64,000 nucleotides of DNA, from positions 42,137 through 106,136 of the forward strand of contig DAOOGN010000002.1 in the NCBI GenBank assembly GCA_035415725.1, read 5' to 3'. A program made the position numbers and the translations under genes. Under the pieces are notes generated by a model, which saw nothing but the letters and a program-made list of their open reading frames with translations, ran no database searches and was not told where the DNA came from. Each line of letters begins with the position of its first letter. The first letter of the stretch is position 1. Source of the stretch: Anaerolineae bacterium. Lineage in GTDB: Bacteria > Chloroflexota > Anaerolineae > B4-G1 > SLSP01. This document shows, piece by piece, positions 20,028 to 59,016 of the stretch.

Positions 20028-22367
20028 TTAACATTTAAGCCTAGTTTTATCGAGGCAAACCCGCAATTTAATATCGCTAATACTGGTAGTTACATCTGTA
20101 ACGATATCCCGGAAGGTTGTCTTCCGTATCCCTTTTTCAGCATCGAAGATGTTAACAGTATTGCCTTCGCGGATAACGTAAAATTCCACCGGTTTTAATC
20201 CTTTAATGTAAATGTCCACCTTCTTACGATTGCCGCCTATAATGATTTTGCGCCGGCGGTGTGACATTCCCAAGGTATAGGTAGACATAGGCCCCTTTGA
20301 TTCCTTGTCGGGACCGCAGACCAGCACATATCCATTCGGCGGCGGCGAGATATGTACGATAAACCAGGGAATGCCATACAAAATGATAAAAACTAGTAAC
20401 CCCAATCCCAAAATTCCACCTGCCAGGTACGGCCACCAGGGGCAGCCTTGCAATTGTGGAATACCTGGCCGGTCAGGGCAGTTGTCTGCACCGCAATCAT
20501 TGAGGCCATCACCATCGCGGTCAGAGCAAGGTGTGGGGGTAGGCGGAAGGGGCGTCGGGGTAGGTGGAAGGGGCGTGGACGTCGGGGTGCAGGTAGGCGC
20601 TACAATCAGTACCGGCATATCACGCTCTACCGGCGGCATGGGGCCGGTCTTGAGTTGTGCAGTCAGGCGCAGACGTAACGTAGTGTCGGTCTGTGTGGAA
20701 CATGGCGTTTCCGCCGATAAAGCCGTGCAGAGCGCGGAAAGATCACTGTTGAATATGCCAGGTGAGGTGCTGCTCAGTTGGACTTCCTGACCACCACCGA
20801 ATGCGCGCAGTTGGATGGTTTTGGCAACGGCCAGGTCGTAATCAGCGATGGTCACCGTCAATTCTGGGCGGGTGCCGCCACATACCAAGGGAGAGGGCAC
20901 AATGTCGGCGATATACGGCGCGCGCCCCACATCCACCATCAAGCGGGCGATGGCAATAGGAATACGTGTGGCCTCGGCGTCCTCTTCCAGTGCGGAGCCG
21001 GCATTCAGGATAAAGATGAAACGGCCAGGGGCCTCCATAATCGCCGGGTACGCGCTGGCGAAGTCAAAGCGAACTTCGTACTCACCGCTACTGTCGGGCG
21101 CGAGGTTTTCGGGAATCCGTAGGGAAGTTTGCAGGCCATCGGGTGTGATGACATCACCCCATATCGGTTGCGGTTCACTGCCGTAACAATCGCTGGAAAG
21201 TGTGAATCGTATGGCAAACTCGCGATTGGGGGTTTGACGCTCGGTTGCCAGATAGATGTTAGTGATCTCGGTAAGGCTCACTTCCGGCGCTTCAAAGTGG
21301 ATCCCGTAGGCGCCGCGGCGATCCAGGTGCACCTTCACCGGTTTGTCCGATTCAATTGTCCACATATCGTTCTTTAGATCATCAGTCAGCCGTGCCGCGC
21401 CGATGGAGATGACTTCTACGGGATTGTCAGTGCCACGGAAGCGCTTGACACCAGGCGTTGTGTCCAGATCAACAGTGTTTGATTTGGGGTCCTTAACGAT
21501 AATGTTCCCTTTAGCTTCGCCAGTTCCATGTTTGACTGTAATGACAATTTCCTGTACGCACTTACTAACGAAGAAGGGGTGAGGTGTACCAGCGGGGACA
21601 TCAGTGCCTTCTTCGTCAGGAATTGTGTTTTGCAATTGGGCGATAATGCGGTTGTAGGTGCTATCAATCTGATTGCGGTCGGTGATGCGATAGGTGAAAA
21701 CGTGATCATAGCGCGTCTGCATCTGCTCCCAAAAGCGGACGTACTTTTCATAATCTGCGTCAGTGGGGTCCTGTAATAACATTATGAAAAATGGAATATC
21801 GGGATTGGCACTCACCAGCCGCTCTATTTCGGCGTCGCTTTGTCCGGCTTCGGGATAAGGGCGGCCATCCGTCATCAGCACCACCGCCGGGAGATTGGTG
21901 GCGCGGCGTGCAGGTGAGGTGCGCAATTCCTGGTAGGCCAATTTGATGGCCTCGATCATATTTGTTCCCAGTTCTGGGGCTGGGTCAGCGACTAGCCGTG
22001 CTATCGCATCGCGCGCGCCGCTGACCGGTTGCAACGGCGCTACCAAAGTTGCGGTGCGGCCCAGGCTAATCACCCCGGCCTGATATTCTAACTCATTGAC
22101 CTCGGCAAATCCCAGGCGTGCGACAAACAGATTGACGCCGGCAATGCGCAGAAAGTCAGGGTCATTGCCCCAGACTTCGCAACCGGCTACAATTTTGTCG
22201 CGTGGGAACATACTGCAAGAGTTGTCGACAACAAGCATCATATCAATAGGTTTGCGGTCGAGATCTGACTGCGCGGCGGCCGGGTAGAAAGGCACAAGGA
22301 GACATACTATCAGAACGATATACAGCAAGGTTTTTATGAAACTGGATGATAGTTTAAGGATATACAT
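20028..22367 (-). CDS. Secreted/membrane-anchored von Willebrand factor A (VWA) domain protein with PT linker, TSP3-like repeat, C-terminal TM helix and ~130-aa cytoplasmic tail
   Basis: Signal-like N-terminus (LLYIVLIVCLLVPFYPAAA); MIDAS motif DxSxS in MLVVDNSCSM, plus LMTDGRP; PTPTPLPPTPTPLPPTPTP linker; CSDRDGDGLNDCGADNCPD repeat; TM GGILGLGLLVFIILYGIPWFIV; basic cytoplasmic tail. Confidence 0.8.
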   Translation of the reverse strand: MYILKLSSSFIKTLLYIVLIVCLLVPFYPAAAQSDLDRKPIDMMLVVDNSCSMFPRDKIVAGCEVWGNDPDFLRIAGVNLFVARLGFAEVNELEYQAGVISLGRTATLVAPLQPVSGARDAIARLVADPAPELGTNMIEAIKLAYQELRTSPARRATNLPAVVLMTDGRPYPEAGQSDAEIERLVSANPDIPFFIMLLQDPTDADYEKYVRFWEQMQTRYDHVFTYRITDRNQIDSTYNRIIAQLQNTIPDEEGTDVPAGTPHPFFVSKCVQEIVITVKHGTGEAKGNIIVKDPKSNTVDLDTTPGVKRFRGTDNPVEVISIGAARLTDDLKNDMWTIESDKPVKVHLDRRGAYGIHFEAPEVSLTEITNIYLATERQTPNREFAIRFTLSSDCYGSEPQPIWGDVITPDGLQTSLRIPENLAPDSSGEYEVRFDFASAYPAIMEAPGRFIFILNAGSALEEDAEATRIPIAIARLMVDVGRAPYIADIVPSPLVCGGTRPELTVTIADYDLAVAKTIQLRAFGGGQEVQLSSTSPGIFNSDLSALCTALSAETPCSTQTDTTLRLRLTAQLKTGPMPPVERDMPVLIVAPTCTPTSTPLPPTPTPLPPTPTPCSDRDGDGLNDCGADNCPDRPGIPQLQGCPWWPYLAGGILGLGLLVFIILYGIPWFIVHISPPPNGYVLVCGPDKESKGPMSTYTLGMSHRRRKIIIGGNRKKVDIYIKGLKPVEFYVIREGNTVNIFDAEKGIRKTTFRDIVTDVTTSISDIKLRVCLDKTRLKC

Positions 22368-22391: not shown

Positions 22392-22874
22392 TTACATGGA
22401 GTGTTCCAGCCTGCGCCCAATATCTTGTGCAAATTCCTCCGCGGCTTGTTCGGGAGGACGATATACCATGACGATATCGTTATTCTCTCTGCCTAACACT
22501 TGGGCCACAGCCGTGCGTGCCATGTCGAGTCCTTGAGGACAAACCGCAAGGACGCCGCCTTGCTCTATGACCTGATGTATAAGCTGATGGACACGTGGAT
22601 CGGCTTCCAGGGCGGACAGGTTGCGTTCACTCCCCGGCAAAATGATCATGGGCACCGTTACAATATCGATGATGCGCTCCAAGGCGGTCAGGCTGAAATC
22701 TGGCTTGATAAGAATGCCGTGCGCGCTATTGATGGTCCCGCCGATAACACCGACACTTTTTACACAAATCCCCATACGACGCAGGACACTGAGCAGCACT
22801 ATCGTTTCAATCTCGTTGAACCCATCCGCCAGCATGACAAGCACACACTGCGTTGAGACATCTTTAGTATTCAA
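22392..22874 (-). CDS. DJ-1/PfpI family (class I glutamine amidotransferase-like) protein; first gene of the minus-strand array
   Basis: VLVMLADGFNEIE N-terminal strand-helix, nucleophile-elbow-like LAVCPQG at the position of AICxGP in DJ-1/PfpI; 160 aa. Confidence 0.6.
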   Translation of the reverse strand: MNTKDVSTQCVLVMLADGFNEIETIVLLSVLRRMGICVKSVGVIGGTINSAHGILIKPDFSLTALERIIDIVTVPMIILPGSERNLSALEADPRVHQLIHQVIEQGGVLAVCPQGLDMARTAVAQVLGRENNDIVMVYRPPEQAAEEFAQDIGRRLEHSM

Positions 22875-23175
22875 TGTCCGCTCCTTTCTTCATTTTTACT
22901 CGACATCGACCATGGTTGTCCATCTCCGGTTCCGGTAGCCCGCCAAGACTTGACTTCTCATCATCGCTTCAGCAATTTTGAAACGGCTCGAATTGCTTAT
23001 GCAAGCTTTATGATCATTTCTAGTAAGTTTGACCGACAAAATAAAGTTTGATGGGGAGTAAATCCTGTCCTTTATTGTAGCGTTTGAATGTCTGTTTAGA
23101 TCTTAAAATAATCTAGAAGTTTCGTCGCCTGGATGGGTAAATCTGTAAAAAACTGTAGATTTCTGGGCGGCGACT

Positions 23176-23204
23176 TTTGTAGTCCCTGGCTTCGGTGTTA
23201 TAAT
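23176..23204 (+). promoter_or_regulatory. Candidate sigma70-type promoter with extended -10 (TGtTATAAT at 23196-23204; -35-like TTTGTA at 23176-23181, 17-nt spacer) in AT-rich divergent region upstream of the NB-ARC gene
   Basis: Read directly in sequence: cgacTTTTGTAgtccctggcttcggTGtTATAATctcc; lies ~128 nt upstream of ATG 23332. The 22875-23331 region is conspicuously AT-rich relative to the flanking coding DNA. Confidence 0.4.
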
Positions 23205-23331
23205 CTCCATAGGAAATAGAAAGCTGGTGAAGGTCCACTTATGCGTTTCAATCCGCGACGTCCGGCTTTGGGGGTCTATCATGGTCCCAGCAGTATCATC
23301 CTTAACCTTCGCCAGGTGGGGCATACATTGA

Positions 23332-24795
23332 ATGATGGTAGATATGGCAATCAACAACTCTCACGATGTCGCTTTTCCCGCTGATTTTGTCAAGCGTGTG
23401 CACCAGGCATTGAAAGCCTGGCATACGCAGTCGACAGAGAATATGCTGACCGATCTTGTGTTGACGCAGCAAACCCGCATCAGGCGCAACATCATCTCGC
23501 CGCGGCTACTCTGCAATCAAATCCTGATGTACGGTATGGATGAGCTGAAGTCTACTCATCGAGAAGCCTATGAATTATTGCAACGGCGCTTTCTTAATAA
23601 AGAAACGGCCCAAGAAGTTGCCTATAGCCGTAACATCACGGTGGACGTCGTTTATCAGCATCAACGCCTCGCGCTTGAAGAGTTGGCACAGGCCATTTGG
23701 AGCCAGGAGCTAGAGGCTCGGGCGCAACAGGCGCGGCGGATTGCGATGCGCCTGGAGTTTCCCACCTATACGCGGCTCTTCGGCGTTGTTGAGAAAAGCG
23801 CCGAACTCTGCGCCAGGCTCGAAACGTTTCACGAACCCTGGATTGTGGCGTTGGAAGGTATGGGGGGAGTCGGCAAAACGGCGCTGGCTGATGCCTTAGT
23901 CCGCACGTTAGCGCATCATTCGCATTTTCAGGATATTGCCTGGCTTAGCGCGCGACAACGTCTGTTTCGTTCTACTGGCATGGTTGAAACTTTGCCCTTC
24001 GTCCCCACACTGACATTGACGGAAATGGTCGATCGGTTGATCGACCAATTTGACTTGGGTGGGTTGAAACGACAAACGGACAAAGAGAAGTTTTGGGGGC
24101 TAAAAGATTATTTGAAATCGCAGCCATGTTTGGTGGTGATTGACAACCTGGAAACCATTCACGATTACTATGCGCTTATACCCGCTTTGCGCGAGTTAGC
24201 CAATCCTGGTAAATTCCTTCTTACCACCCGCTATTCGCTGCGCGGTGAGAGTGGCGTGTACCTGTTCCCGCTGCAGGGTTTGGCAATGGCGGATGCGTTA
24301 GCTTTGGTACGTTATGAGGCCGAATTACAGGGCCTGACCGACCTGGCTACGGCTACTGATGACGAACTAGGGTCGCTCTACACGGTCACGGGGGGTAACC
24401 CCTTAGCCATCAAATTGATTGTTGGACAAACCCACACCTTTCCACTGTCGCTGATCATACAACGTCTTGGCGCATCGCCGGTTGATCGAGGCATGGACCT
24501 GCTGGATTTCATCCATGCCGACGCGTGGAAAATGTTGTCCTCCGACCATCGAAGGATCATGCAAGCACTAACGTTGGCGCCGGATGGGGGGGGGCGATTG
24601 GAACAGTTGGCGGCAGCCTCTGGCCTCCCTGCTGCCGACGCCGTGACTTGTCTGCGCACTTTGACCAGCCTCTCGTTGGTCATGACGCTGGGCGGTTTGT
24701 CTGAGCGTCGTTATGCGCTACATCCCCTGACACGCACCTTTGTGCTGCGGCAGAAACTGGAAGAATTACCTGATGCGGACGATTGCCGGGGCTAA
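23332..24795 (+). CDS. STAND NTPase, NB-ARC type (P-loop, GxP motif, winged helix)
   Basis: Walker A GMGGVGKTALA; Walker B-like CLVVIDNLE; NB-ARC GxP-like motif TVTGGNPLAIKLIVG; WH-like RYALHPLTRTFV near C-terminus. Ends 23 nt inside the following TPR ORF, in a different frame. Confidence 0.8.
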   Translation: MMVDMAINNSHDVAFPADFVKRVHQALKAWHTQSTENMLTDLVLTQQTRIRRNIISPRLLCNQILMYGMDELKSTHREAYELLQRRFLNKETAQEVAYSRNITVDVVYQHQRLALEELAQAIWSQELEARAQQARRIAMRLEFPTYTRLFGVVEKSAELCARLETFHEPWIVALEGMGGVGKTALADALVRTLAHHSHFQDIAWLSARQRLFRSTGMVETLPFVPTLTLTEMVDRLIDQFDLGGLKRQTDKEKFWGLKDYLKSQPCLVVIDNLETIHDYYALIPALRELANPGKFLLTTRYSLRGESGVYLFPLQGLAMADALALVRYEAELQGLTDLATATDDELGSLYTVTGGNPLAIKLIVGQTHTFPLSLIIQRLGASPVDRGMDLLDFIHADAWKMLSSDHRRIMQALTLAPDGGGRLEQLAAASGLPAADAVTCLRTLTSLSLVMTLGGLSERRYALHPLTRTFVLRQKLEELPDADDCRG

Positions 24796-25954
24796 TGCGC
24801 GCTACTGGTTGGACTATCTCCACACTATCGCGGCCGACAGTCCTCTCACCGAAGACGATATGCAAGGCGCGCTTCGCGCCCTGGATGCGGCCATCGTCAC
24901 CCCCGAAGCCTGGCCTTTGCTTCGCCCCTTAACGGCATTAGTGCACCCTTACATGGAACGCCAGGGCGCATGGACAGGATGGGACGAATTGTTGCATTAT
25001 TTGATTGCTTATGCGCAACAACATGCCGATCCAGAAACGCAGATAACTTTCTTAACGCGCCTGGGGAGCTTACAACGTCGCCGTGGCGACCTGCAGGCGG
25101 CCATCGTCTCTTTCAGGCAGGCGTGGCGACTCTGTCGACATACCGATGATCGGTTTTGGCAGGCCATCATTTTTTCTAATTTAGGCGATTTATATTGCAT
25201 CTATGACGACTTCTGGCGCGCTGAGGTGCTATGTGACAAGGCCCGCGCACTCTTTACGGCATTAGGCGACCTGATGCGCCTGGGGTATACCGAGAATCAT
25301 TTGGGTTGGATTGATCTTCGTCAACGACAATGGGATGCGGCATGGCTTCACTTCCAACGTGCCGAGGAACTCTTCCGGCAGATCGAAGATGAAAATGGCC
25401 TGGCCATGCTATGGCAGAATATGAGCGTCCTTTGCCATTATCTCCAGCAATCTCAAAAGGCATTGGACTATATGACGCAAGCCCTGCGTTATTATGAAAA
25501 AACGGGAGATCATTATCGTATTGCTACTATCTACCTTGATCAGGGCAATACGTATCAGGCTTCCGGCGATTTTGAACAAGCGGAACAGGCCTCTCTCCAG
25601 GCTGAGGCTATGTTTGCTCAGTTAGAAGACCGTCCCAACCTGGCGCGCGTACGCCATAACCTGGGAATGATTTATACACACACTGGCAACTGGCAAGAGG
25701 CCGAACGCTGTTTCCTCTGGGCTTTGGACTCCTGGCGGCAGCAGCAGGACAGCTATAACCTGACTAACACGCTGGGTGAGCTTGCCACTATGTATATTGC
25801 GTGGGGGCAAAGACAACAGGCACAATACTATCTTGATGCATTTGAACAATGTGTTACGTTACATCACCACGATCCGGCCTACCAGGGTTTGCATCGAGAA
25901 TTGATCGAACGGCGGGAAAAACTGGCTATGCTGTATGGGGATAACCGAATCTGA
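24773..25954 (+). CDS. TPR-repeat protein (probable sensor arm of the STAND NTPase; start taken at ATG 24773, ORF opens at 24740)
   Basis: Multiple 34-aa TPR-like units (W..A....F..A..L..A, e.g. ...LGDLYCIYDDFWRAEVLCDKARALFTALGD...); overlaps upstream NB-ARC ORF by 23-56 nt in +1 frame. Confidence 0.7.
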   Translation: MRTIAGANARYWLDYLHTIAADSPLTEDDMQGALRALDAAIVTPEAWPLLRPLTALVHPYMERQGAWTGWDELLHYLIAYAQQHADPETQITFLTRLGSLQRRRGDLQAAIVSFRQAWRLCRHTDDRFWQAIIFSNLGDLYCIYDDFWRAEVLCDKARALFTALGDLMRLGYTENHLGWIDLRQRQWDAAWLHFQRAEELFRQIEDENGLAMLWQNMSVLCHYLQQSQKALDYMTQALRYYEKTGDHYRIATIYLDQGNTYQASGDFEQAEQASLQAEAMFAQLEDRPNLARVRHNLGMIYTHTGNWQEAERCFLWALDSWRQQQDSYNLTNTLGELATMYIAWGQRQQAQYYLDAFEQCVTLHHHDPAYQGLHRELIERREKLAMLYGDNRI

Positions 25955-25955
25955 T

Positions 25956-25992
25956 GAAGCCCCTCCCCCAGACAGGGGTGGGGGCTTCTTGT
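25956..25992 (+). terminator. GC-rich hairpin (14-bp stem, 5-nt loop) followed by TTGTGG directly after TPR gene stop; candidate intrinsic terminator
   Basis: gaagcccctccccc-agaca-ggggtgggggcttc then ttgtgg; one G-U and one mismatch in stem; U-tract weak. Confidence 0.35.
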
Positions 25993-26043
25993 GGCATTGG
26001 GGTCAAGCGAGCATTTCTGGCGCTGATGATAACTACACTCTTG

Positions 26044-26193
26044 CTATTGGCCCAGGGGACATCCATTGCCACTGTTGGTGCTGCACCCTTCAGCCAAAAC
26101 AATGTTCCCTGCTCCAGGGGAAAATGGGGCGATTAGAATGGCAAGAGCCAATAGTATAGCCATAACAAGCGTTTTTAAGGATCTTCCGGACAT
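26044..26193 (-). CDS. Candidate 49-aa small hydrophobic/Cys-containing peptide (MSGRSLKTLVMAILLALAILIAPFSPGAGNIVLAEGCSTNSGNGCPLGQ) with strong SD
   Basis: Minus-strand sequence gaAAGGAGacgcagATGtcc gives AAGGAG 6 nt before ATG at 26193; one predicted TM/signal helix then Gly/Cys-rich C-terminus; sits antisense between NB-ARC/TPR and ATPase-wHTH genes. (ORF track lists a longer 26044..26301 version; upstream part lacks SD.). Confidence 0.35.
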   Translation of the reverse strand: MSGRSLKTLVMAILLALAILIAPFSPGAGNIVLAEGCSTNSGNGCPLGQ

Positions 26194-26445
26194 CTGCGTC
26201 TCCTTTCTCTGAGAGAAAATGAGCAAGACGCGGGTCCCCCCAGTCGCTGACTGGCTTCGAAGACGTCCGGCTGTGAATAAACTTGGTGAGCGCGCTTTCA
26301 TTTATCACTATAGCCGAAATCAGGTATACGTGCTATAGTAGCATGTTGAAAACGCCCTGATTCTGTACTGAAAATGGCTGAAAGTTTTGCTCTATAAATG
26401 AAGTCACGTTGACGAACTTGTATTCCTTGTAAGGTGGAGTCTCTT

Positions 26446-27840
26446 GTGGAAGTTGTGCATGGGGTTTCTCCTGGTTATCGTCAGGCTGAACGGCAAATCC
26501 TGGCGCGCTGGATAATGTCTGGGCAGAGTGGCGCAGTCATTGGGTTGCCCGGTTGTGGACGCTCGAGTTTGCTGGAGTTTTTGTGCGCCCAGTCCGAGCC
26601 TCTTTTGGATCGTACATCTGCCGTTACGGAGTGCATGGTGTTAGTTCCGGTAAACTTGTTCACGTTGCCGGCCACGGATATGGCTACATTCTATCGCGTA
26701 TTGCTACGCGCCTTCTATCACGCTTCCCGACATTTCAGCCCTATCTTACGAGATATGGCAGCCCATCTCTATCGTGAAAACATTGAAGCTCAGGATCCTT
26801 TTTTACCGCAGAGCGCGCTTCAAGAGTTGCTCCTGTGCTTCCACGATAACCATACCCGCGTTGTTTTGGTGTTGAATCATTTTGACTATTTTTTGCAGGA
26901 AGCTACGCCCCCTATGGTGAATACTCTACGGGGTCTGCGCGATAGTTTCAAGCACACGTTAAGTTTTATTGTTGGTATGCAGCAGGAAGTCGCCTACTTG
27001 CCCGATCCGGAGGCATTGGGTGAGATGTATGACTTGCTGGATAGAAATGTGTGTTGGGTGGGCGCGATGGGCCACGAAGATGCGCAAGGGGTGATTGCAC
27101 AAACCCTCCATGCGACAGCCGACTTCCCCACCGCTGCCGAGATGGATATGATGTTGCGCCTATCCGGAAACTTCCCGGCGCTTTTGCAATTGGTTGCCTA
27201 TTGGTGGCAAAAAATTTCTCCACGCCCGCTGGTTTCAGAGTGGTCGGCAGCACTCCTGGCAGAAAACAATGTCCGCCGTCGCTTAACCAAAATGTGGGAT
27301 GGACTGACCCAGGAGGAGCAGTTTTTTTTATCCGCGATTGCCGGGATGCAAATGCATTCCCCTACTGAAATGGAAAGTGTTCAGTGTCTGAAAAATGTAG
27401 GGTGCGGACTGGAGCGTCAGAATTTGCTGCTGCGCCTTGCTCACAAGGGGGTATGCGAACAAACACCGACAGGTTGGAGTATCCGGGGAGATTTGTTTCT
27501 GGCTTATGTCAGAGAAGCCGGCATGTCCAGTCGTGGGCGGATCTGGTTGGACAAAGAAACCCAAGTGATTAACCAGGGGCTTACCCACATCACAAACTTG
27601 ACGCCGTTGGAAAGGAGACTGCTTCAATACTTCATTCTGAACCCCTATAAGCCGCATGAGAGCGAAACATTGATCTCCTATATTTGGGAAGATAAATCCG
27701 ACGACATGGTGGATAATGATCTCCAACAGTTGATTTATCGGCTGCGAAAAAAGATCGATGGAGTTCCACCCCAATACATCATCACCTGGAAGGGCCGTCC
27801 AGGCGGGTATCAGTTCTATCCTGAGGGACGTCCAAAATAA
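26446..27840 (+). CDS. P-loop ATPase (AAA/STAND-like, atypical Walker A with Arg) fused to C-terminal OmpR/PhoB-type winged-helix DNA-binding domain
   Basis: GLPGCGRSSLL (GxxxxGRS, not GKS/T); Walker B-like VVLVLNHFD; C-terminus LTPLERRLLQYFILNPYKPHESETLISYIWEDK...LQQLIYRLRKKIDG...IITWKGRPGGYQF matches trans_reg_C pattern. Start chosen at GTG 26446, 6 nt after AGGTGGAG; ORF opens at 26434. Confidence 0.7.
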   Translation: MEVVHGVSPGYRQAERQILARWIMSGQSGAVIGLPGCGRSSLLEFLCAQSEPLLDRTSAVTECMVLVPVNLFTLPATDMATFYRVLLRAFYHASRHFSPILRDMAAHLYRENIEAQDPFLPQSALQELLLCFHDNHTRVVLVLNHFDYFLQEATPPMVNTLRGLRDSFKHTLSFIVGMQQEVAYLPDPEALGEMYDLLDRNVCWVGAMGHEDAQGVIAQTLHATADFPTAAEMDMMLRLSGNFPALLQLVAYWWQKISPRPLVSEWSAALLAENNVRRRLTKMWDGLTQEEQFFLSAIAGMQMHSPTEMESVQCLKNVGCGLERQNLLLRLAHKGVCEQTPTGWSIRGDLFLAYVREAGMSSRGRIWLDKETQVINQGLTHITNLTPLERRLLQYFILNPYKPHESETLISYIWEDKSDDMVDNDLQQLIYRLRKKIDGVPPQYIITWKGRPGGYQFYPEGRPK

Positions 27841-27852
27841 ACGGGGTATTTT

Positions 27853-30777
27853 ATGCTCCCGAGCATTGACATCGAGGGTACACTTCGGTTGCCGGAAAAC
27901 GGGCGGGCTATTCTGCAGACGCTATTTCCCGCGCATCAACGTGTCATTGTTAAAAGGGAATTCACCGGCAACCTCAGCGGCAGCCGTGTCTTTCTGGTAC
28001 AACCTATTACAGCACAAGGAACAGAATACCCCGTTGTCGTCAAATTTGCTGCGCTAAGTTTGATCGAGAAGGAGTGGCGCGCCTACCAGCGTATACGGCA
28101 GACGCTTTACGGCGTCGTGCGGGTACAAAACAAAGTTCTACCAAGCGACGGGGAATGGGCTGCATTGAGTTACCCCCTCCAGGGTGGGGGAATGTTCGAA
28201 GTCGACAATCTCTACGATTATTGTCAGCATTGTCATGCGCGCGAAATTCTACAAACATTCTACAGAGTGTTTAAAACCCTTGAGGGCATACACAATCAGA
28301 GTCGTGCCGTCTCAGGGTTCTTTTGGCGCGCCAGTTACGATCACATCTTGCCAGTGAATTTGCTCATGGCCTCTGCCGATCTCCCTGCGGACGTCCCTGT
28401 CCAAATTTTGGATGTGTCGAACGTGGAGGTCGGAAATGTGCAACTGGGCGACTGGGTAGAATTGCGCGGGTTTACCGTGACCAAAGTTGACTTACGCGAT
28501 CATACGGTCACGCTTAATCTACCTTATAAAACGGAGCACTCCGACTCGTTTTGTGTGCGGGTGATGGTGACGGAGAGTCCTGCTATTTATCACGAGCATC
28601 AAATCGTACCGTCTTTTACAGGTCAGGTTATGGCGACCCGCCCCAGTCAGTTACAGACTTACGCGCAATCCCTGCTGGCGGCAGAAGCGGCAGCGACGGC
28701 TCCCTCATTTTCTGCCGATGGGGTATCACTGCCCAATCCATTTTTGCGGGTAGCGACGATTCTCAACCAATACCGTGACGTGCGCACAGCGTTGATCCAT
28801 GGTGATCTGAACTTGTACAATGTCCTGGTCGATGTGGATACCGGCTATATCAGTCTGATTGATGTCACCGAAGCGCATGAGGACCACATTCTGCACGACT
28901 TCTTGCGTATGGAAACAGAAGTTGTGACCAAGTTGTTGCCGGACTTATTGTCCGCGGTAGCTCTGTCGGTGCCTCGTACGATGTTCGAGTTTTATCAGGC
29001 GTTGCACTGCGCGACTTTCGAATCGCCCACACTGCACGATTATCGCCTACCCTTAGACCTGGAGAAACCCTTTGAAGCTATTCGCTCTATCCGGCGGATG
29101 GCCGCGCGGCATTTCTACAGCGACGATCCGTCCGAATACTATCAGGGCTTATTGCTATACCTCGTCGGGGCACTTAAATTCAGCAACCTGGATCGGCATC
29201 CAACCGCACCGCTTCCTAAGCAGGCCGCGCTGTGGGGAGCGGCGACGGTTGCCTGGCTGTTGGACTCTGCCCCGGTTTGTCAACCACACTCAATGCCAAT
29301 GCTGGAGGCAGCTCCCCCGGCTGCATTGTTGATCGATTATACGCCTGAAGTCAAAGTGTTGCGTAAGGATACTGAGTGTTTTGTTCCGGCGGCGTATGGC
29401 ATGCCGCTCTATCAAGGGGATGTGGTTAGCACCTTTACGGCAGCTCACGCTTTGATCTATTGCCGGAATGGTTCACTTCTGGCAGTGCCGGATGAACATA
29501 ATCAGTGTATCGATGCTTCTCATATTCCTTCTGAACGTGTCTGGGCGCACTTGGAGAGATATGATATAACTTACTGGCCCTTCCTCATCAACCACGTGTC
29601 TTTCAATCTGACATTGCCGCCAGAAACAGTCTCGCCTTTGTTGCTCGCCCCCCGTCAAACGCGCCTTCAGGCTACTCGCCCTACATTTTATTGGCGTGCA
29701 GTGGTCGGCGCAACTGCTTATCGCTTATCACTGCGTATGCCCAACGGGATAATCTGGCAGCGTGAAACCCCGTTCACGACATTGCTTTACCCTGATGATG
29801 CCCCTGCGCTGACCCCTGGCAGTGGCAATACGGTGGTTTTGGAAGTCGTCCATGCGCCCTCTCCATCCGAAACGGTGTACCTGGAAATGCTTAGGGAAGA
29901 AGAGCTGGCTATGGTTCAGACGCAAGAGGGCATCATTCGGGAATTGCACCCCAATGCAGTTGCCGAATGTTATCTGTTGGCGTTGCTATACCGCCGATGG
30001 GGATTATGGGGTGCGGCAATCCATCAGCTCGAACAGCTTGCATGCGGGATGCCATCGCTTTCGTCTGCGTTCTGGTTGCTCTTGGGAGAACTTTATCTGC
30101 GCATTGGACTGTATGCTCAATCTGAAGAACAATATCTTCAGGCATTGAGCTACGGGAAAATCGAACAGAACATGACGGCCCAGACGCTGGCCTATATGGG
30201 GTTGGTGTGCGCATCCGGTGCACAATCCCATTATCTCCAGGCGCAAAATTACCTCGAGGCCGCAAACTTACAAGAAGATAAAGCCCTGCTACAGTTTGTG
30301 CATGACCAACTAGAGCCTGTGCCGCGTCGTGCCTATTCTGTTGTTACAACTCCGGTGGGTTTGTTTGACTATGTACGTTCTCTGGCAGAGCAGATTGCTG
30401 TTCACCTGACCGATGAAATACGGCATATTCCGGAACGATTCCTTGAACAACTGCAGACGATGTCCCCATACACTCTCAGACCCACCGCCGATGGCTGGAG
30501 CACACTCGGTTCCGATAAATTAGCGGCCATGGAAATGTTGGCTATGACCTACATCACAACACGCACGCTTTTGGAAGCATTTCCCCGCGCAGAATTCGAG
30601 CGTCAGATCCAGACCGGGCAGATCGAGCAGCTATTGCGCGACCACGCTCAACAGATAGTGCAGACGACGCTGGGCGTGTCGGTGGAGAAGGCGGCGGATT
30701 TTGCCAATCGCTATACAGCCATGGTGAGAGATCATCTTGACATCCTACGACAGTTATTGGATTCCCAGGAACTATAA
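27853..30777 (+). CDS. 974-aa protein: N-terminal protein-kinase/aminoglycoside-phosphotransferase-like fold domain, C-terminal TPR-like helical region
   Basis: Catalytic-loop-like ALIHGDLNLYNVLVD (cf. HGDLxxxNxL of APH/ePK-like kinases) followed by ISLIDVTEA at DFG position; C-terminal half helical with TPR-like periodicity. Confidence 0.6.
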   Translation: MLPSIDIEGTLRLPENGRAILQTLFPAHQRVIVKREFTGNLSGSRVFLVQPITAQGTEYPVVVKFAALSLIEKEWRAYQRIRQTLYGVVRVQNKVLPSDGEWAALSYPLQGGGMFEVDNLYDYCQHCHAREILQTFYRVFKTLEGIHNQSRAVSGFFWRASYDHILPVNLLMASADLPADVPVQILDVSNVEVGNVQLGDWVELRGFTVTKVDLRDHTVTLNLPYKTEHSDSFCVRVMVTESPAIYHEHQIVPSFTGQVMATRPSQLQTYAQSLLAAEAAATAPSFSADGVSLPNPFLRVATILNQYRDVRTALIHGDLNLYNVLVDVDTGYISLIDVTEAHEDHILHDFLRMETEVVTKLLPDLLSAVALSVPRTMFEFYQALHCATFESPTLHDYRLPLDLEKPFEAIRSIRRMAARHFYSDDPSEYYQGLLLYLVGALKFSNLDRHPTAPLPKQAALWGAATVAWLLDSAPVCQPHSMPMLEAAPPAALLIDYTPEVKVLRKDTECFVPAAYGMPLYQGDVVSTFTAAHALIYCRNGSLLAVPDEHNQCIDASHIPSERVWAHLERYDITYWPFLINHVSFNLTLPPETVSPLLLAPRQTRLQATRPTFYWRAVVGATAYRLSLRMPNGIIWQRETPFTTLLYPDDAPALTPGSGNTVVLEVVHAPSPSETVYLEMLREEELAMVQTQEGIIRELHPNAVAECYLLALLYRRWGLWGAAIHQLEQLACGMPSLSSAFWLLLGELYLRIGLYAQSEEQYLQALSYGKIEQNMTAQTLAYMGLVCASGAQSHYLQAQNYLEAANLQEDKALLQFVHDQLEPVPRRAYSVVTTPVGLFDYVRSLAEQIAVHLTDEIRHIPERFLEQLQTMSPYTLRPTADGWSTLGSDKLAAMEMLAMTYITTRTLLEAFPRAEFERQIQTGQIEQLLRDHAQQIVQTTLGVSVEKAADFANRYTAMVRDHLDILRQLLDSQEL

Positions 30778-32133
30778 ATGGCTGGCGGTAAGATATTTTT
30801 GGATGCGTTGATCGACCAGCAGCGCGATCCGGTTGCCTTTTTGCACGGTCTGCGCTGTTACCGGCGCCGGCTGTGGTGGCCGGCCTGGGGTATACGCGCG
30901 GGGGCATGGGCAGCGCTGTCAGCCGTATTGGGGATCATTGCCTGGTTGACCCCTACGAAATGGGACCTGTTATTGGCGCCCATTCTGATCTTGCCCCTGA
31001 TGACGCAAATACTTTGTGCACTCTTAATCACCATCCTGGGTGAAGCACAATTTTGGCTTCTTTATGCTTACTCTCCTTTACTGATACTTATGGGCTGGTT
31101 GTGGGGATTAGGGTCATTATCGCCATTAGGAACATGGCTGGGGTTGCAGGTAGGATTTATCTTTTACGTTGGGAAACTCATCGCTGATGGCTGCACAATG
31201 TGGGTGCATCGTCAATTGGAAGAGGTGCAGGATGAACAGCAGCGACACCGCGGAACATGTCTGCCCATCACGGCCACGGTGATGCCGGCGTGGCAGCGTG
31301 CCAGGAAGATACGGGTATGGGCGGCAGTCGGCCTGAGTGTTGTTATCCTTTACATTTATCATGCTCTGCCGGCACAAGAGTTGTGCGGCTACAGCACTTG
31401 CGGCGAAGAAATCCTTATTTTGCACGCTATCATCTCTGTTGGCGCCGGCATGTTTGGCTGTCTGGGACTTGATGCAACGCTACTTGCCATCTTGAAAGCG
31501 AAGCCAGCGCTATGTTTTACCGCCGGACAATGGCAACCTACTTACATCGGACGAGTAGCCTTATGGACGCCGATGCGCTATATCCATCGTCTTTTTTTGT
31601 CAGAACGAGCTTTGTCCGATCAAAGCTACATGATGTGTACTTTGCTGACACAAGGATACCTGGGGCCGGTTGTGCGTCGGGTTTGTCGTTCCTGGTCGGC
31701 GATGCACTTGCAGCAACTTCTTGTGGCGCTTAGTATGCAGGAGGGCGGCAGTGCTGTCATTCGTTATCTTCTCCCTTCCTTGCCCCCCTCATTGCAAACT
31801 GTAGGAGCATTTTACGCGCATCTGGCAGATGAAGCGCTGAAGCCACCGGATTTGCAGTGTTGGCTTCACGTGTTGACGGCCTACTTCCCTTCAACCATAA
31901 TGCCGGATGACGGTTTCGAGACTTCTGCCATTTTGCTCCTCTCTCAAGTCCGCGACGCTTTATTGACAGTGACGGCAACTCCTGAACTTACCCAGACCCT
32001 TCGACGTATGTGCCGGCTGATCACACAATGGCGCGCAGCTACGCTTTTATCGGAAACGACGTCCACACCATCGTGGCCGTCCATGCTATTATGGCGCCTT
32101 GAACAACACCAGAAACGATTGCAAATAATATGA
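30778..32133 (+). CDS. Polytopic integral membrane protein (about 9-10 predicted TM helices), function unknown
   Basis: ATG immediately follows TAA of upstream gene (ctaTAAATGgct), suggesting translational coupling; many long hydrophobic stretches. Confidence 0.55.
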   Translation: MAGGKIFLDALIDQQRDPVAFLHGLRCYRRRLWWPAWGIRAGAWAALSAVLGIIAWLTPTKWDLLLAPILILPLMTQILCALLITILGEAQFWLLYAYSPLLILMGWLWGLGSLSPLGTWLGLQVGFIFYVGKLIADGCTMWVHRQLEEVQDEQQRHRGTCLPITATVMPAWQRARKIRVWAAVGLSVVILYIYHALPAQELCGYSTCGEEILILHAIISVGAGMFGCLGLDATLLAILKAKPALCFTAGQWQPTYIGRVALWTPMRYIHRLFLSERALSDQSYMMCTLLTQGYLGPVVRRVCRSWSAMHLQQLLVALSMQEGGSAVIRYLLPSLPPSLQTVGAFYAHLADEALKPPDLQCWLHVLTAYFPSTIMPDDGFETSAILLLSQVRDALLTVTATPELTQTLRRMCRLITQWRAATLLSETTSTPSWPSMLLWRLEQHQKRLQII

Positions 32134-32142
32134 GGTCGCCCC

Positions 32143-34005
32143 ATGACTAAGTTTAGCCCATGGACATCCTTTCCTGTTGTTACCTATGAAACGCTCGTTG
32201 TGCGTTTTATACGTCAGACTTACTATGCGGACGATAGCATTTTCCAGTTGGAAGTGCGTCAAACGCCTGCCCCTTTACCCGGCGGCGTATTTCGTGCAGA
32301 TATTGAAGCACAATTGGCAAGTTTTCAGAGCCTTTTCACCCAACAAGTGACCTTCAATCAATTCTTCAGTCGCTTCGAAAGTCCTCCTACACCTTCCACA
32401 AACCTCGGTGATATGCAAGAACTGGGACGGCAATTATACGCGCTCTTGCCCCTAGCTTTTCAGCAATCTTTTCAACGTGTGATTCAAAGCGTTTTTGAAA
32501 AAGGACATGGATTACGTTTTATCCTTGAGGCCCGCGCGGGCGACAAGGCAGATCACCTGTTGGGTTTGCCATGGGAATTGCTCTTTTTCGAGACCACGGG
32601 CACATTTTTGGCACGCTCGCCGCGTGTTTTGATTGTACGTCGCCTGCTTGAGGCGTTACGCCGTAGTCCAGTGCAGATGCAGCCACCCTTTAACGTTATC
32701 CATGTCATTGCCGCCACGGAGGGGGCCTCTCCCAAGTATGAGATCAATGAAACATTGCAATCGCTCGAGCGGGATACGATTCGCCAGGCAATACAACCGG
32801 GGGTCTATCGTTTGGTTGAGAAGCCCGGTGCAGTTGAGACGATGCTGGCCGCATTGAGTGAGGATGCCTACCATATTGTTCACTTCTTAGGGCATGGTGA
32901 GATTCTAGAGCATGAGTCTGAACCCTGCCGTCATATCCAACGCGGTTACTTGCGTTTCGTTGATATGGACAACAACACGCAGTGGGTGACCGGCGAGCAA
33001 CTGCAACACTTTCTTGAATTCACTCCTGCCGTGCAACTGGTTGTCCTCAATGCTTGTCATGGAGGAGCTAACGTTGCCAGAAGTGTCGCTCTGGAGCTGG
33101 TGTACAATGGGCTACCGTATGTTGTCGCCATTCAGGGGGATATCTTACAAGAGTCCGCCAAACATTTTGTCACAGCGTTTTACACGGCCTTACAAGGTGG
33201 TGATGATATTGCCTACGCTGTTGCAATCGGCCGCGCCGCCATCGCTGCACACATTCCCCAAACACTGGATTGGTGCTTGCCGGTGCTGTATACCAATGTC
33301 GGCCTCAATGAAGTTCCGGCCGGGGTCGAGCGCGCCGCGCGACTCTGGCAATGGATGAGTACGCTGCGGGCCCGCAAGCAGATAGGAGCAGGCCATCTGC
33401 TTTTTGGGGGATTGCACCTGATCGTGGGACTGTTGTTGTTCATAAGTCGGCCAGTGTTGGCCCTGCCATCGGCTTCTCTTCTTGGCGGCATCACAGCCGT
33501 GTTCGCGGCATTGCCCCTTATGACAGCATTTATCTTCTATTGGCGCATGACTCCACCACCACCAAAATCTTGGGCATTCACCGGCCGGTTAGCCCTGTTT
33601 ATATGCGTCCTTGACGCCGCCTCCTTGAGCTTTGGACTATCTTTGTGGTACGTTTGGAGTATCTGGTTATTGGTTATCGCAACCGGCTTATGGAATATCC
33701 TTAACTCTCTAGCCCAGGGAGTTCTGGTAAGCCTGATTCTTGTAGCTGGACTGCTGTTGAGCAGTGAGTTGAGTTATTCACAAATGTGGGGACATACACA
33801 AGCGTTTATCTCCGCGGCACATATTGAACCCCCCAGCTTTAAGTGGAGTGACCTTATCATTGCCCTTGGAGGGTATGTACTCCTGTCCATTCCGTGGTTT
33901 ATCAACGCCTTTTACGCAGCATGGGCAACCCCACCCTGGGGAAATATGTGGATTGGCATTGTATTATTAACGTTTGGCTCCATGTTCTGGAAAGAAAACG
34001 AATAG
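32143..34005 (+). CDS. CHAT-domain (caspase-like His-Cys dyad) protease with C-terminal multi-TM membrane anchor
   Basis: HFLGHG (catalytic His block) and VVLNACHGG (catalytic Cys block) at caspase/CHAT spacing; C-terminal ~200 aa has ~6 hydrophobic helices; GAGG 8 nt upstream of ATG. Confidence 0.75.
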   Translation: MTKFSPWTSFPVVTYETLVVRFIRQTYYADDSIFQLEVRQTPAPLPGGVFRADIEAQLASFQSLFTQQVTFNQFFSRFESPPTPSTNLGDMQELGRQLYALLPLAFQQSFQRVIQSVFEKGHGLRFILEARAGDKADHLLGLPWELLFFETTGTFLARSPRVLIVRRLLEALRRSPVQMQPPFNVIHVIAATEGASPKYEINETLQSLERDTIRQAIQPGVYRLVEKPGAVETMLAALSEDAYHIVHFLGHGEILEHESEPCRHIQRGYLRFVDMDNNTQWVTGEQLQHFLEFTPAVQLVVLNACHGGANVARSVALELVYNGLPYVVAIQGDILQESAKHFVTAFYTALQGGDDIAYAVAIGRAAIAAHIPQTLDWCLPVLYTNVGLNEVPAGVERAARLWQWMSTLRARKQIGAGHLLFGGLHLIVGLLLFISRPVLALPSASLLGGITAVFAALPLMTAFIFYWRMTPPPPKSWAFTGRLALFICVLDAASLSFGLSLWYVWSIWLLVIATGLWNILNSLAQGVLVSLILVAGLLLSSELSYSQMWGHTQAFISAAHIEPPSFKWSDLIIALGGYVLLSIPWFINAFYAAWATPPWGNMWIGIVLLTFGSMFWKENE

Positions 34006-57543: not shown

Positions 57544-57796
57544 TTTTTCCTCCGTTTATGGATCGAGTTAAGTTGAGACCGGCAAGTAACCGGGTAAGTC
57601 TTATGTCCAGATGGGACGCAGGTATTATAGCGCCCAACGGAATATGGGCAATAGCTCAATGGGTATCGGGTCAATGATGGGGAAGTGCGCGGGGCGGCGG
57701 TGGCTCGGGCGGGAAGACTTTAGTGCAGTCACATAGATCCCTGAGGATGCGTTTTTCTTGACGGATTGGGCTGCCACGCTACCATGGGGGTTGATG

Positions 57797-58744: not shown

Positions 58745-59016
58745 GATGGCCTTGAAGCGCTCGGCCTCGCTTCCGCGCCAACGTTGCAGGGCTCACACGG
58801 CTTTTCAGGGTGATGATGACAAGGGGTCAGCGGGCGGGTGACGGCAGACCGTCTCCTTCCGTCAGACGTGAAGCGCCGCGCGCCGGTAGCCAAAATACGG
58901 CTGAAACTGGCGTCATCCTGGTTCACCGGGCTTGCCGAAGTTGGAAGTTCAGGTAGCATGAAAGTATCTATCGTGCCCAACGTTCATGGCTTAAAGGCGT
59001 GAAAGGATGGTGCCCC

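Follow-up and report, generated by a model that had tools for sequence, protein, structure and literature searches.

Several described systems come close to the locus reported here. Kaur et al. 2020 (PMC7159879) present a constant core with swapped effectors as the mark of conflict systems, and describe TCAD9 as an APH-like small-molecule kinase among the effectors of ternary systems. Operons that combine vWA and FtsZl1 genes were described by Makarova and Koonin 2010 (PMC2875224). In Anabaena, the membrane CHAT protease HetF belongs to the divisome, and its proteolysis of PatU3 couples division to differentiation (PMC8406250, PMC9457339). We analysed a 64,000-nucleotide (nt) stretch of contig DAOOGN010000002.1 (positions 42,137 to 106,136; called the window below) from an uncultured filamentous Anaerolineae bacterium. 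It holds a plus-strand cluster of six genes, named A to F, that encodes a STAND ATPase, a TPR protein, a DNA-binding NTPase-like protein, a TCAD9 kinase, a membrane protein and a CHAT protease. The cluster stands divergent to a minus-strand operon with a vWA gene and a tubulin-like gene. We read the cluster as a STAND/caspase NTP-dependent conflict system, acting against invaders or in cell death, that is switched on transcriptionally, and put the probability of this reading at about 45%.

All six open reading frames (ORFs) were present in the ORF listing of the window at the positions given earlier by the first-pass annotation, which had been made from the DNA letters alone. ORF and Pfam scans bore out the genes, their domains and their clustering. 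The features of the cluster, in window coordinates and with lengths in amino acids (aa), are:

22875-23331, no strand: divergent control region, 44% GC
23332-24795, plus strand: gene A, NB-ARC STAND ATPase, predicted to be active (487 aa; Pfam NB-ARC 6.8e-11)
24773-25954, longest ORF from 24740, plus strand: gene B, TPR protein (393 aa; TPR_12 2.8e-29, TPR_MalT 4.8e-12)
25965-25984, plus strand: terminator-like GC hairpin and T-rich tail just 3' of the B stop codon (consensus scan, pattern match only)
26044-26193, minus strand: pep, gene for a predicted secreted disulfide-loop peptide (49 aa)
26215-26275, minus strand: CTTCGAAGACGTCC block and two-tier hairpin, upstream of the pep ATG (alignment, RNAalifold)
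26346-26399, plus strand: four phased direct repeats, then TATAAAT, the putative operator/promoter of C-D-E-F (sequence reading)
26434-27840, plus strand: gene C, P-loop NTPase with a C-terminal OmpR/PhoB-type winged helix-turn-helix, wHTH (468 aa; Trans_reg_C 7.7e-13)
27853-30777, plus strand: gene D, TCAD9 (APH-like) kinase with scaffold domains (974 aa; TCAD9 2.9e-37)
30778-32133, plus strand: gene E, membrane protein with no Pfam match and no known family or fold (451 aa)
32143-34005, plus strand: gene F, N-terminal domain, CHAT protease and about six C-terminal transmembrane (TM) helices (620 aa; CHAT 4e-19)

The tight linkage claimed for the last four genes proved exact when the sequence was read: the TAA of C is followed by 12 nt and the ATG of D, the TAA of D abuts the ATG of E (0 nt), and 9 nt separate the TGA of E from the ATG of F. 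A and B are read in different frames and share 23 nt, and 480 nt lie between B and C. The control region upstream of A is indeed shared with the tubulin-like operon, as had been noted. The identical locus was found on 14 independently assembled metagenome contigs. The deposited proteins, from a metagenome-assembled genome labelled "Anaerolineae bacterium", are named merely "phosphotransferase" and "CHAT domain-containing protein".

We looked for the same gene order in other genomes, as the first-pass annotation had proposed, and found it in at least five Anaerolineae lineages. Among the related loci compared, the order of a DJ-1 gene divergent to A, then B, pep on the opposite strand, C, D, E and F recurs in L004, L006/L009, L008, L010 and L017, with protein identities of 35-74%. 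L008 has no B and carries an additional inositol-phosphatase gene, and the contig of L017 is cut at A. The longer arrangement, from the tubulin gene (Tub2) through vWA and DJ-1 and on into the divergent A to F, is present in L004/L048, L006/L009, L010 and L008. Past F, each of the four loci that reach that far has genes of its own: the window has a TMEM260-like gene and a transketolase gene on the opposite strand, L004 has ATPase_2, FtsK and a serine recombinase, L006 has HEPN, BrxL, PglZ, a transposase and TCAD2, and L008 has DUF5655 and an ABC transporter. With the same order in five lineages and different flanks past F, we judge the shared arrangement to lie far beyond chance.

Protein identity across the loci was 76-92% for Tub2, 65-83% for vWA, 53-74% for C, 52-73% for F, 47-62% for B, 40-68% for D, 40-58% for A, 39-47% for DJ-1 and 35-61% for E. 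Full-length orthologues of D formed 14 clusters at 38-100% identity. Against L004, where synonymous divergence (dS) is saturated, non-synonymous divergence (dN) was 0.08 for Tub2, 0.16 for C, 0.17 for vWA, 0.18 for F, 0.21 for D and pep, 0.28 for B and E, 0.40 for A and 0.48 for DJ-1. The dN/dS ratio was well below 1 for Tub2, vWA, pep, C, D, E and F and not estimable for DJ-1, A and B. On these ratios the genes are under purifying selection wherever dS can be estimated, and are thus taken to be functional. The sensor-side genes (A, B, DJ-1) come out as the fastest evolving.

Scans seeded with C returned 39 loci, and all named ones belong to Chloroflexota (Anaerolineae, Caldilineaceae, "Chloroflexi"). 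Of the 25 non-redundant loci that extend far enough past C, 19 encode a TCAD9 protein downstream of it, and in 18 the two genes are adjacent. As the TCAD9 gene follows directly on C in most loci, at 36-75% identity, the linkage of C to D is not specific to one clade. Judged from these loci, the conserved core, which recurs in about 25 Chloroflexota loci, consists of the NB-ARC protein, the TPR protein, the peptide, the NTPase-wHTH protein and a TCAD9 protein. What the loci have in common in D is the N-terminal half only (~470 aa), and the remainder differs from locus to locus. The partners of the core vary as follows:

L028: EAD1-TCAD9-CHAT fusion
L040: beta-propeller-TCAD9 protein
L030: TCAD9 protein and a separate EAD7 gene
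L025: C14 caspase, TPR-CHAT protein, then TCAD9
L011 (3757-14045): A-B-pep-C, with a DEAD-helicase/MZB/HNH protein instead of TCAD9 and an N6/N4 DNA methylase upstream of A
L013 and L014: exceptions, with a convergent BTAD-NB-ARC-TPR giant
L038: exception, with a subtilase

The gene content of L011 is restriction-like or DISARM-like. In a search of 5.8 billion proteins, TCAD9 homologues were found fused to caspase, CHAT, TIR_2, NB-ARC/NACHT-TPR, WD40, Ser/Thr kinase, vWA, FHA, AAA_35 and EAD1/EAD7 domains. We favour a conflict role on the grounds of the swapped effectors, the EAD/TIR/caspase network, the fast-evolving sensor genes and the defence and mobile-element neighbours, which in the relatives include HEPN, BrxL, PglZ, transposase, TCAD2, recombinase and FtsK.

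On the sensor side, the NB-ARC and TPR parts had been annotated as a single protein. They are two genes in different frames with a 23-nt overlap, and they are separate in every relative, so that the split is genuine and not a frameshift error. B is called as a gene of its own in all independent assemblies, and in L006 the two genes do not overlap. A frameshifted NB-ARC-TPR pseudogene was rejected as an explanation, the split being kept in all assemblies and relatives. A retains TTR and, invariant in seven orthologues, GMGGxGKT (Walker A), hhhhDNLE (Walker B), GNPLA and the winged-helix His (LH motif); it scores 42.3 bits against the NB-ARC cut-off of 23.5, and Walker A, Walker B, GxP and the winged-helix His are invariant. 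For the N-terminal 130 residues of A the top Pfam match is Sigma70_r4, below threshold (E 0.012-0.053 in three orthologues), and the top PDB profile matches are RpoH and an ECF sigma factor (E 0.3-0.4), which is suggestive only of an N-terminal sigma-70 region-4-like helix-turn-helix (HTH). In NCBIfam, A resembles the STAND protein of the FxSxx-COOH system, and B resembles the AfsR TPR model (9e-18) and the TPR model HaaT, associated with ribosomally synthesized and post-translationally modified peptides (RiPPs; 2e-18), in each case below threshold. With the sigma-4-like HTH, the OmpR-type wHTH and the phased operator-like repeats, A, B and C look like a transcription switch and not like an apoptosome that activates a protease directly.

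C had been called an ATPase-wHTH protein, and its two halves fared differently. The wHTH stood: Trans_reg_C covers residues 388-460 (7.7e-13), and PhoB/OmpR DNA-binding domains in the PDB were matched at 1e-7. The ATPase site did not, as the P-loop is degenerate: the motifs read GLPGCGRS and LVLN, with GR[ST] replacing GK[ST] and an N where Walker B should have Asp. R43 is invariant in nine orthologues. An exhaustive HMMER search gave 116 clusters for the C family at E<=1e-30, and among 89 full-length members the Walker A/B residues were K/D in 49 and R/N in 23, the window belonging to the latter. Since most members have K/D, the family is ancestrally an active NTPase, and the subclade of the window has lost both catalytic residues together; with R/N in 23 of the 89 members, this is a stable subclade. 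We rejected the possibility that C is a family-wide inactive "iSTAND", as most members carry K/D and no iSTAND Pfam match was obtained. No Pfam model matched the NTPase part of C, apart from a weak AAA_22 match at the N-terminus. The order of motifs is STAND-like (P-loop, hhhhD, RD, G-x-[YF]-P, W-x-x-L-[TS]-x-E-E-Q), and hhalign aligned the GxP and W..L motifs of C and A at a probability of just 4%.

The split sensor and the degenerate P-loop bear on the idea that the cluster is decaying, with a frameshifted NB-ARC/TPR pseudogene and a P-loop in C that has lost its function. Decay could account for the overlap of A and B in different frames and for GR/N instead of GK/D in C, but the split is found in every assembly and relative with clean separation in L006, dN/dS is well below 1 for each estimable gene, A, D and F show no variation at their catalytic residues, and the R/N state of C recurs in 23 of 89 family members as a stable subclade. 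These conservation data effectively refute decay, to which we give almost no credence.

Upstream of C, the [CT]TGA[AT] direct repeats TTGAAAA (26346), CTGATTC (26357), CTGAAAA (26368) and CTGAAAG (26378) follow one another at spacings of 11, 11 and 10 nt and are followed by TATAAAT. A comparison of 31 loci gave a 4.6-fold enrichment of CTGA[AG] upstream of C, with spacings of 10-11, 22, 33 or 44 nt in 17 of 20 cases. Phased repeats are also present in distant relatives (GCTGAGA three times in L026; five copies in L041). OmpR/PhoB-type winged helices classically bind direct repeats that are in phase with the DNA helix and take the place of the -35 box, and C is the only OmpR/PhoB-type wHTH protein in the locus. 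The repeats at 26346-26399 thus have the appearance of a pho-box-like putative operator/promoter for C-D-E-F.

A further block, CTTCGAAGACGTCC, lies between pep and C and is near-invariant in six loci. Its flank folds on the pep strand into a two-tier hairpin, for which RNAalifold gave 15 pairs, six of them compensatory. No Rfam family was matched across 22.3-34.4 kb, the CTTCGAAGACGTCC hairpin included. Block and hairpin could be a leader RNA or a (palindromic) operator. In the divergent control region, an ATCTGT(A/G)GATTTC(T/C)G element at ~23141-23170 is conserved in the window, L004, L006 and L010. L008 (5883-5974) has six ATCTG(T/C)A copies in ~90 bp, five in the same orientation at spacings of 10-30 nt and one inverted, a density of 23.8 per kb against a background of 0.2 per kb. 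Candidate binders of the ATCTGT(A/G) element are A, through its sigma-4-like HTH, and C, through its wHTH. The sequence GACGTCCGGCT was found again at ~23258, in the intergenic region between DJ-1 and A.

The earlier reader had missed the peptide gene between B and C. The product of pep (minus strand, 26044-26193) is MSGRSLKTLVMAILLALAILIAPFSPGAGNIVLAEGCSTNSGNGCPLGQ, and AAGGAG lies 6 nt 5' of its ATG. Equivalents occur in the same gap and orientation in 15 loci, distant Caldilineaceae included, and in 12 of the 13 loci in which A was detected, so that pep is genetically linked to A/B/C. Every equivalent begins with a basic hydrophobic N-terminus like that of a signal peptide and ends, past a linker that varies, in a Cys-x(4-9)-Cys loop, often rich in Gly, for example ...AEECNGTGTTCPG, ...AAACSHSGGGCG and ...HACNDTSGAGGGC. 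An AxA-like site was recognized by eye ahead of the loop, giving a predicted mature peptide of ~10-15 residues, which for the window would be EGCSTNSGNGCPLGQ with one disulfide. The dN/dS of pep is ~0.2 against L004, and its exact sequence is absent from a collection of 15 billion proteins.

A, B, pep and C might be an AfsR/SARP-like split STAND regulator with a peptide of its own (e.g., a RiPP-like or pheromone circuit) that is merely juxtaposed to an unrelated kinase/protease membrane module, D-E-F, and to a vWA-FtsZl1 operon, three units without a joint mechanism whose co-occurrence reflects shared ancestry. L011, L013 and L014 have A-B-pep-C without D-E-F and without the tubulin and vWA genes, B has a terminator-like hairpin behind it, the Tub2 operon stands by itself in other loci, and the sub-threshold similarities of B to the AfsR and RiPP-associated TPRs and of A to the FxSxx-COOH STAND protein point the same way. 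This is at odds with the TCAD9 gene placed directly after C in most loci (36-75% identity), with the spacings of 12, 0 and 9 nt between C, D, E and F, and with TCAD9-CHAT fusions, which link D and F. We consider three independent units unlikely.

D had been described as a kinase-like TPR protein. Both kinase likeness and TPR repeats were found, and we revise the description to a TCAD9 (APH-like) kinase with all catalytic residues intact. D scores 129.3 bits with TCAD9 against the Pfam cut-off of 40 and has a weak APH match too. Residues K64, E74, H316-G317-D318, N323 and D337 make up the full kinase catalytic set and are invariant in 45 diverse TCAD9 proteins. In an AlphaFold 2 model (pLDDT 86.4), the kinase (1-471) is followed by two beta-sandwiches (~490-680), TPRs (682-820) and a helical bundle (837-971), and Foldseek matched the model to APH(3')-Ia, FN3, the Ig-like domain of MtxA and CTPR proteins. 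D is therefore predicted, on sequence and model, to be a catalytically competent APH-like kinase.

E is not the protein with ~10 TM helices that had been annotated. It has ~6 long TM helices (33-240) and an all-helical soluble C-terminal domain of ~200 aa (model pLDDT 72, pTM 0.71). Searches for a Pfam match, a gasdermin match and an informative fold match gave none. Among 5.8 billion proteins E formed eight clusters, all of them orthologues beside F. F, as annotated, is a separately encoded CHAT protease with ~6 C-terminal TM helices: the CHAT domain spans residues 138-361 (69.6 bits against a cut-off of 24), and ~6 hydrophobic helices follow residue 410 by hydropathy. Its catalytic dyad, His in HFLGHGE and Cys in LN[AT]CHGG (VVLNACHGG in the window), is invariant in six orthologues. 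The proposed membrane-targeted effector stage is in keeping with a tightly coupled, membrane-located E-F pair, E having been seen only with F. The pair of E and TM-CHAT F is confined to the clade of the window.

The closest solved relative of F is the CHAT protein PDB 8tl0 (1e-4), and the best named one is HetF, below threshold (6.5e-8; 31.3 bits against the NF045509 cut-off of 1200). The first-pass annotation had named CHAT homologues in housekeeping contexts as an objection to its own reading, and with HetF as the best named match of F this cannot be dismissed. A serious rival is a developmental or cell-envelope module of a filamentous bacterium, in which F would be a HetF-like protease that regulates the vWA-FtsZl1 apparatus proteolytically (in membrane remodelling or related to the septum) and pep a patterning or quorum signal between cells, sensed through the TPR/STAND/wHTH switch. 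HetF cleaves PatU3 and so couples division to differentiation (PMC8406250, PMC9457339). The conservation of the pep gene together with A/B, the regulator-type domains in A, B and C with their operator-like repeats, and the strong conservation of Tub2 (76-92%) and vWA (65-83%) also fit a developmental module. On the other hand, the HetF match is far under the family cut-off, the system is rare and patchy (eight clusters for E, 14 for full-length D), and TCAD9 swaps its partners (CHAT, caspase, TIR, helicase-HNH, EAD) in a conflict-like and not a housekeeping manner. The remaining evidence on this rival comes from the minus-strand operon, whose genes are:

22392-22874, minus strand: DJ-1/PfpI-fold protein, first gene of the operon, divergent to A (160 aa; DJ-1_PfpI 2.4e-12)
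20028-22367, minus strand: vWA protein (779 aa; VWA_2 2.2e-6)
16519-19992, minus strand: Tubulin_2/FtsZl1-family GTPase (1157 aa; PF13809 2.5e-47)
15595-16515, minus strand: beta-propeller
10889-15523, minus strand: 1544-aa protein
9585-10883, minus strand: 432-aa protein
7630-9558, minus strand: Kelch/DUF11 protein
1-7584, minus strand: TPR giant of >2528 aa that runs off the window

With a PF13809 gene adjoining a vWA gene whose MIDAS reads DNSCS, this is a vWA-FtsZl1 operon. The DJ-1-like protein is probably catalytically inactive, a pseudo-enzyme that would serve in binding or regulation, the position of the nucleophile Cys being C, N, E, S or Q in five orthologues. Its gene is divergent to A in the clade of the window, L013 and L040, which includes Caldilineaceae loci without the tubulin operon. 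The vWA protein has an N-terminus like a signal peptide, an intact MIDAS, a Pro/Thr-rich linker with a DxDxDG-like Cys-rich motif and, by topology read from the translation, a single TM helix close to the C-terminus, behind which ~110 aa would form a cytoplasmic tail; no effector domain was recognized in it. This layout suggests a surface receptor-like protein. An FHA-like fold for the tail was considered and found no support in a PDB sequence search or in Pfam. At its N-terminus the 1544-aa protein has a weak match to the PD-T4-6 kinase models (9e-6), and its counterpart in L051 has a Pkinase domain.

The Tubulin_2 family comprises at least 130 clusters. Genes for vWA, Tub2, a beta-propeller, a protein of 1300-1900 aa, one more protein and a TPR giant of 2200-2700 aa form an operon that is conserved by itself: its order is kept in L048-L053 and L055, and the flanking genes are unrelated in L050-L053 and L055. 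The junction of A-F with the tubulin operon is accordingly specific to one clade. The idea that the two form one island holds insofar as the cluster and the operon occur together in all five complete relatives. The island is nonetheless a composite of separable families, as most vWA-Tubulin_2 operons are without the cluster and the A-B-pep-C-TCAD9 core is mostly without the tubulin operon.

In L049 (3591-6979; Tub2 60% identical), the divergent slot holds genes for a sigma70_r4 protein, a protein of 274 aa and a CHAT protein of 588 aa; the last has in common with F the N-terminal domain, the CHAT domain and the TM helices at the C-terminus (blastp 1.5e-15 over F 32-383). The same sigma gene is present in L056 (310-1077), where the contig then ends. 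Two cluster designs thus place an F-like TM-CHAT protein, with a sigma-4-type HTH, beside the operon, which points to a functional link on a small sample. A JetD gene lies close by in L049. Among Tubulin_2 homologues (P0208 / L054 5161-10038, P0126, P0152, P0167), some are fused to SIR2_2, with a second SIR2_2 gene and M48-like peptidases nearby in L054, and others to STAND-like AAA modules. The SIR2 and AAA fusions hint that FtsZl1-vWA operons may themselves be conflict-related.

The F-like TM-CHAT protein beside the vWA-Tub2 operon in two designs speaks for the developmental module. It is countered by the SIR2 fusions, by the operons that lack such a cluster (L050-L053), which are the majority, and by the absence of the tubulin operon from most C-TCAD9 loci. 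Weighing all of this, we regard a developmental role as doubtful, if well worth keeping in view.

Elsewhere in the window, an HTH-WYL-WCX regulator of BrxR/CapW/PafBC type (57758-58744, plus strand) adjoins a PAS/GAF hybrid histidine kinase (58999-63150) and has no obvious link to the island. A 2246-aa surface-type protein with LTD, DUF11, Big_5, DUF7927 and OB-fold/PHP fragments (50803-57543, minus strand) is unrelated to the island.

For the conflict system, we propose a mechanism in two stages. Domain identities, catalytic-residue states, gene order, the C-TCAD9 linkage, TCAD9-CHAT fusions and the phased repeats are directly established; from them we infer all interactions, the ligand, the substrate and the biological role. 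In the first stage, a ligand, either invader-derived or pep itself, would bind the TPRs of B, leading to nucleotide exchange and oligomerization of A, which would bind and hydrolyse ATP. A would then recruit the pseudo-NTPase C, and in this co-assembly the arrayed winged helices of C would bind the CTGAR repeats phased at 10-11 nt, in place of the -35 region, and turn on the C-D-E-F operon. In the second stage, the kinase D would license the membrane pair E-F, E being the dedicated partner of F. F might then cleave a membrane-proximal target; candidates are E, the adjacent vWA receptor-like protein (in its cytoplasmic tail) and some regulator that acts on the vWA-FtsZl1 operon.

In a bolder version the locus would be a communal alarm circuit. 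The secreted loop peptide would be read by the split STAND/TPR receptor, which would act through the pseudo-NTPase-wHTH protein on the kinase and the membrane protease; the protease would then control or activate the neighbouring apparatus of extracellular vWA and FtsZl1, for a containment or death that is signalled in paracrine fashion and executed by the caspase-like protease. We hold this extended circuit to be distinctly improbable.

Several points weigh against a transcriptionally switched conflict system. The domain set is found in the network of Kaur et al. 2020, in line with the conflict or cell-death role first suggested, but the cluster is not a catalogued defence system, as no PADLOC model matched: a search of 13 proteins against PADLOC-DB v2 gave no system and only weak or generic matches (mad8 1.9e-3, SAVED_CHAT 1.2e-3, a TPR model and the PD-T4-6 match of the 1544-aa protein). 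The TCAD9 domain had no match in 72,556 plasmids (tblastn). The best named relative of F is a developmental protease (HetF, PMC8406250), and a secreted peptide suggests cell-cell signalling rather than the sensing of invaders. The domains of A, B and C are those of ordinary STAND transcription regulators (AfsR/SARP, MalT). The homology of the NTPase part of C to STAND is weakly supported, by motif order and not by statistics, and we infer the assignment of the CTGAR boxes to C. The synteny is limited to related Anaerolineae and could in part be vertical descent. A low-GC island as a sign of horizontal transfer was also considered and is ambiguous: GC content is 0.49-0.55 over ~16.5-34 kb, and the stretch at ~11-16 kb (10.9-15.5 kb) of the same operon is as GC-rich as the flanks, parts of the operon having 63-66%.

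If the conflict system is real, it would represent an unnamed family made up of a C-type NTPase-wHTH protein (~116 clusters), a TCAD9 kinase with swappable effectors, a split NB-ARC/TPR pair and a peptide gene. It would add a transcription-gated stage to the apoptosis-like STAND/caspase toolkit of multicellular bacteria, and would supply a candidate peptide signal for a STAND-type immune or death switch. TCAD9, hitherto treated as an "effector-associated" domain only, would be an intact kinase hub between the STAND switch and caspase-like proteases. Through the TM-CHAT protein in two independent cluster designs, it would also offer a handle on FtsZl1-vWA operons, whose function has been open since 2010; the communal alarm circuit would be the first functional handle on them. 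Under the developmental alternative, the locus would be a HetF-like proteolytic control circuit in Chloroflexota, in which multicellular development is essentially unexplored at the molecular level.

Compared with known systems, the locus shares several elements with the MoxR-vWA ternary systems of VMAP, iSTAND, FtsH and beta-propeller types (Kaur, Burroughs, Iyer, Aravind 2020, PMC7159879; 2021, PMC8195603). The common elements are TCAD9, EAD1/EAD7, CHAT/caspase, STAND and inactive STAND-like NTPases and vWA, together with a constant core and variable effectors, a filamentous Chloroflexi host and a vWA protein paired with a neighbouring NTPase. Here, by contrast, the partner of vWA is a tubulin-like GTPase, and TCAD9 is not fused to vWA. 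No MoxR/AAA_3 protein was found among the ORFs of the window scanned with Pfam, with four ORFs at 38.8-44.7 kb covered through precomputed annotations of identical contigs, and A-F had no Pfam match to VMAP, iSTAND, iSTAND2 or TERNS3. With MoxR and VMAP/iSTAND absent, the cluster is not a member of the described ternary systems. Nor were an OmpR-type DNA-binding NTPase and a small secreted peptide found among the components given in the searched and read parts of those papers (PMC7159879, PMC8195603), and "TCAD" has zero occurrences in the supplement of Kaur et al. 2020. The architecture as a whole is undescribed in the titles and abstracts of the literature on TCAD9 and on FtsZl1/Tubulin_2/PF13809 and in the searched and read parts of the ternary-system papers.

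AfsR is under the control of a Ser/Thr kinase. With AfsR/SARP and MalT/LAL regulators the locus shares NB-ARC, TPR, OmpR-type wHTH and sigma-4/LuxR-like HTH domains and operators of helix-phased direct repeats. It differs from them in that the parts are spread over three polypeptides without BTAD, a second, degenerate NTPase carries the wHTH at its C-terminal end, and the linkage is to TCAD9-effector genes and not to biosynthetic clusters. SARP/AfsR regulators unite an N-terminal OmpR-type wHTH, BTAD, NB-ARC and TPR in one polypeptide; the NCBIfam AfsR score of 63.6 bits against a cut-off of 1430 places the locus outside the SARP/AfsR family. RRNPP and FxSxx-COOH systems likewise have a small peptide gene with a conserved C-terminus beside a TPR/STAND protein and a DNA-binding output. 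Unlike them, the locus pairs a split receptor with a peptide that combines a Sec-type leader and a C-x(4-9)-C loop. It has no gene dedicated to processing, whether for a peptidase or a radical-SAM enzyme, and the sequence similarity is below threshold.

Among protease systems, the type III-E Craspase (gRAMP with TPR-CHAT/Csx29, Csx30 and a sigma factor) also has a CHAT protease with TPRs and an output tied to HTH/sigma regulators, and the F-like clusters of L049 and L056 have a sigma70_r4 protein. No CRISPR array or gRAMP was seen here; the protease is membrane-embedded, the TPRs are on other proteins, and activation would come from the STAND ATPase or the kinase and not from RNA. Avs/AVAST systems, for which the PADLOC models gave no match, resemble the locus in their STAND ATPase, TPR sensor and protease-type output, but Avs is a single polypeptide with a fused effector, whereas the output proposed here is transcriptional and multi-gene. 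In contrast to caspase/CHAT-gasdermin systems, the gene adjoining the protease is E, all-helical with ~6 TM helices and without a gasdermin Pfam match.

HetF and F both have an N-terminal CHAT domain followed by TM segments, a filamentous multicellular host and a genomic or functional link to the FtsZ family. F is without the TPR region of HetF, the cluster that it shares with a STAND ATPase and a kinase is rare and patchy, and its score, far under the NF045509 cut-off, sets it apart from HetF equivalogs. The vWA-FtsZl1 operons of Makarova and Koonin 2010 (PMC2875224) agree with the minus-strand operon in a Tubulin_2 gene beside a membrane vWA protein with an intact MIDAS, and in kinase-like and uncharacterised membrane or giant proteins; we found no report of a divergent STAND/TCAD9/TM-CHAT cluster beside them in the passages of that paper retrieved by term searches. 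Set against all of these systems, the locus is distinguished by its split sensor, the C-type NTPase-wHTH family whose NTPase part no Pfam model covers, the linked secreted peptide, the dedicated membrane partner of a TM-CHAT protease and the junction with a vWA-FtsZl1 operon.

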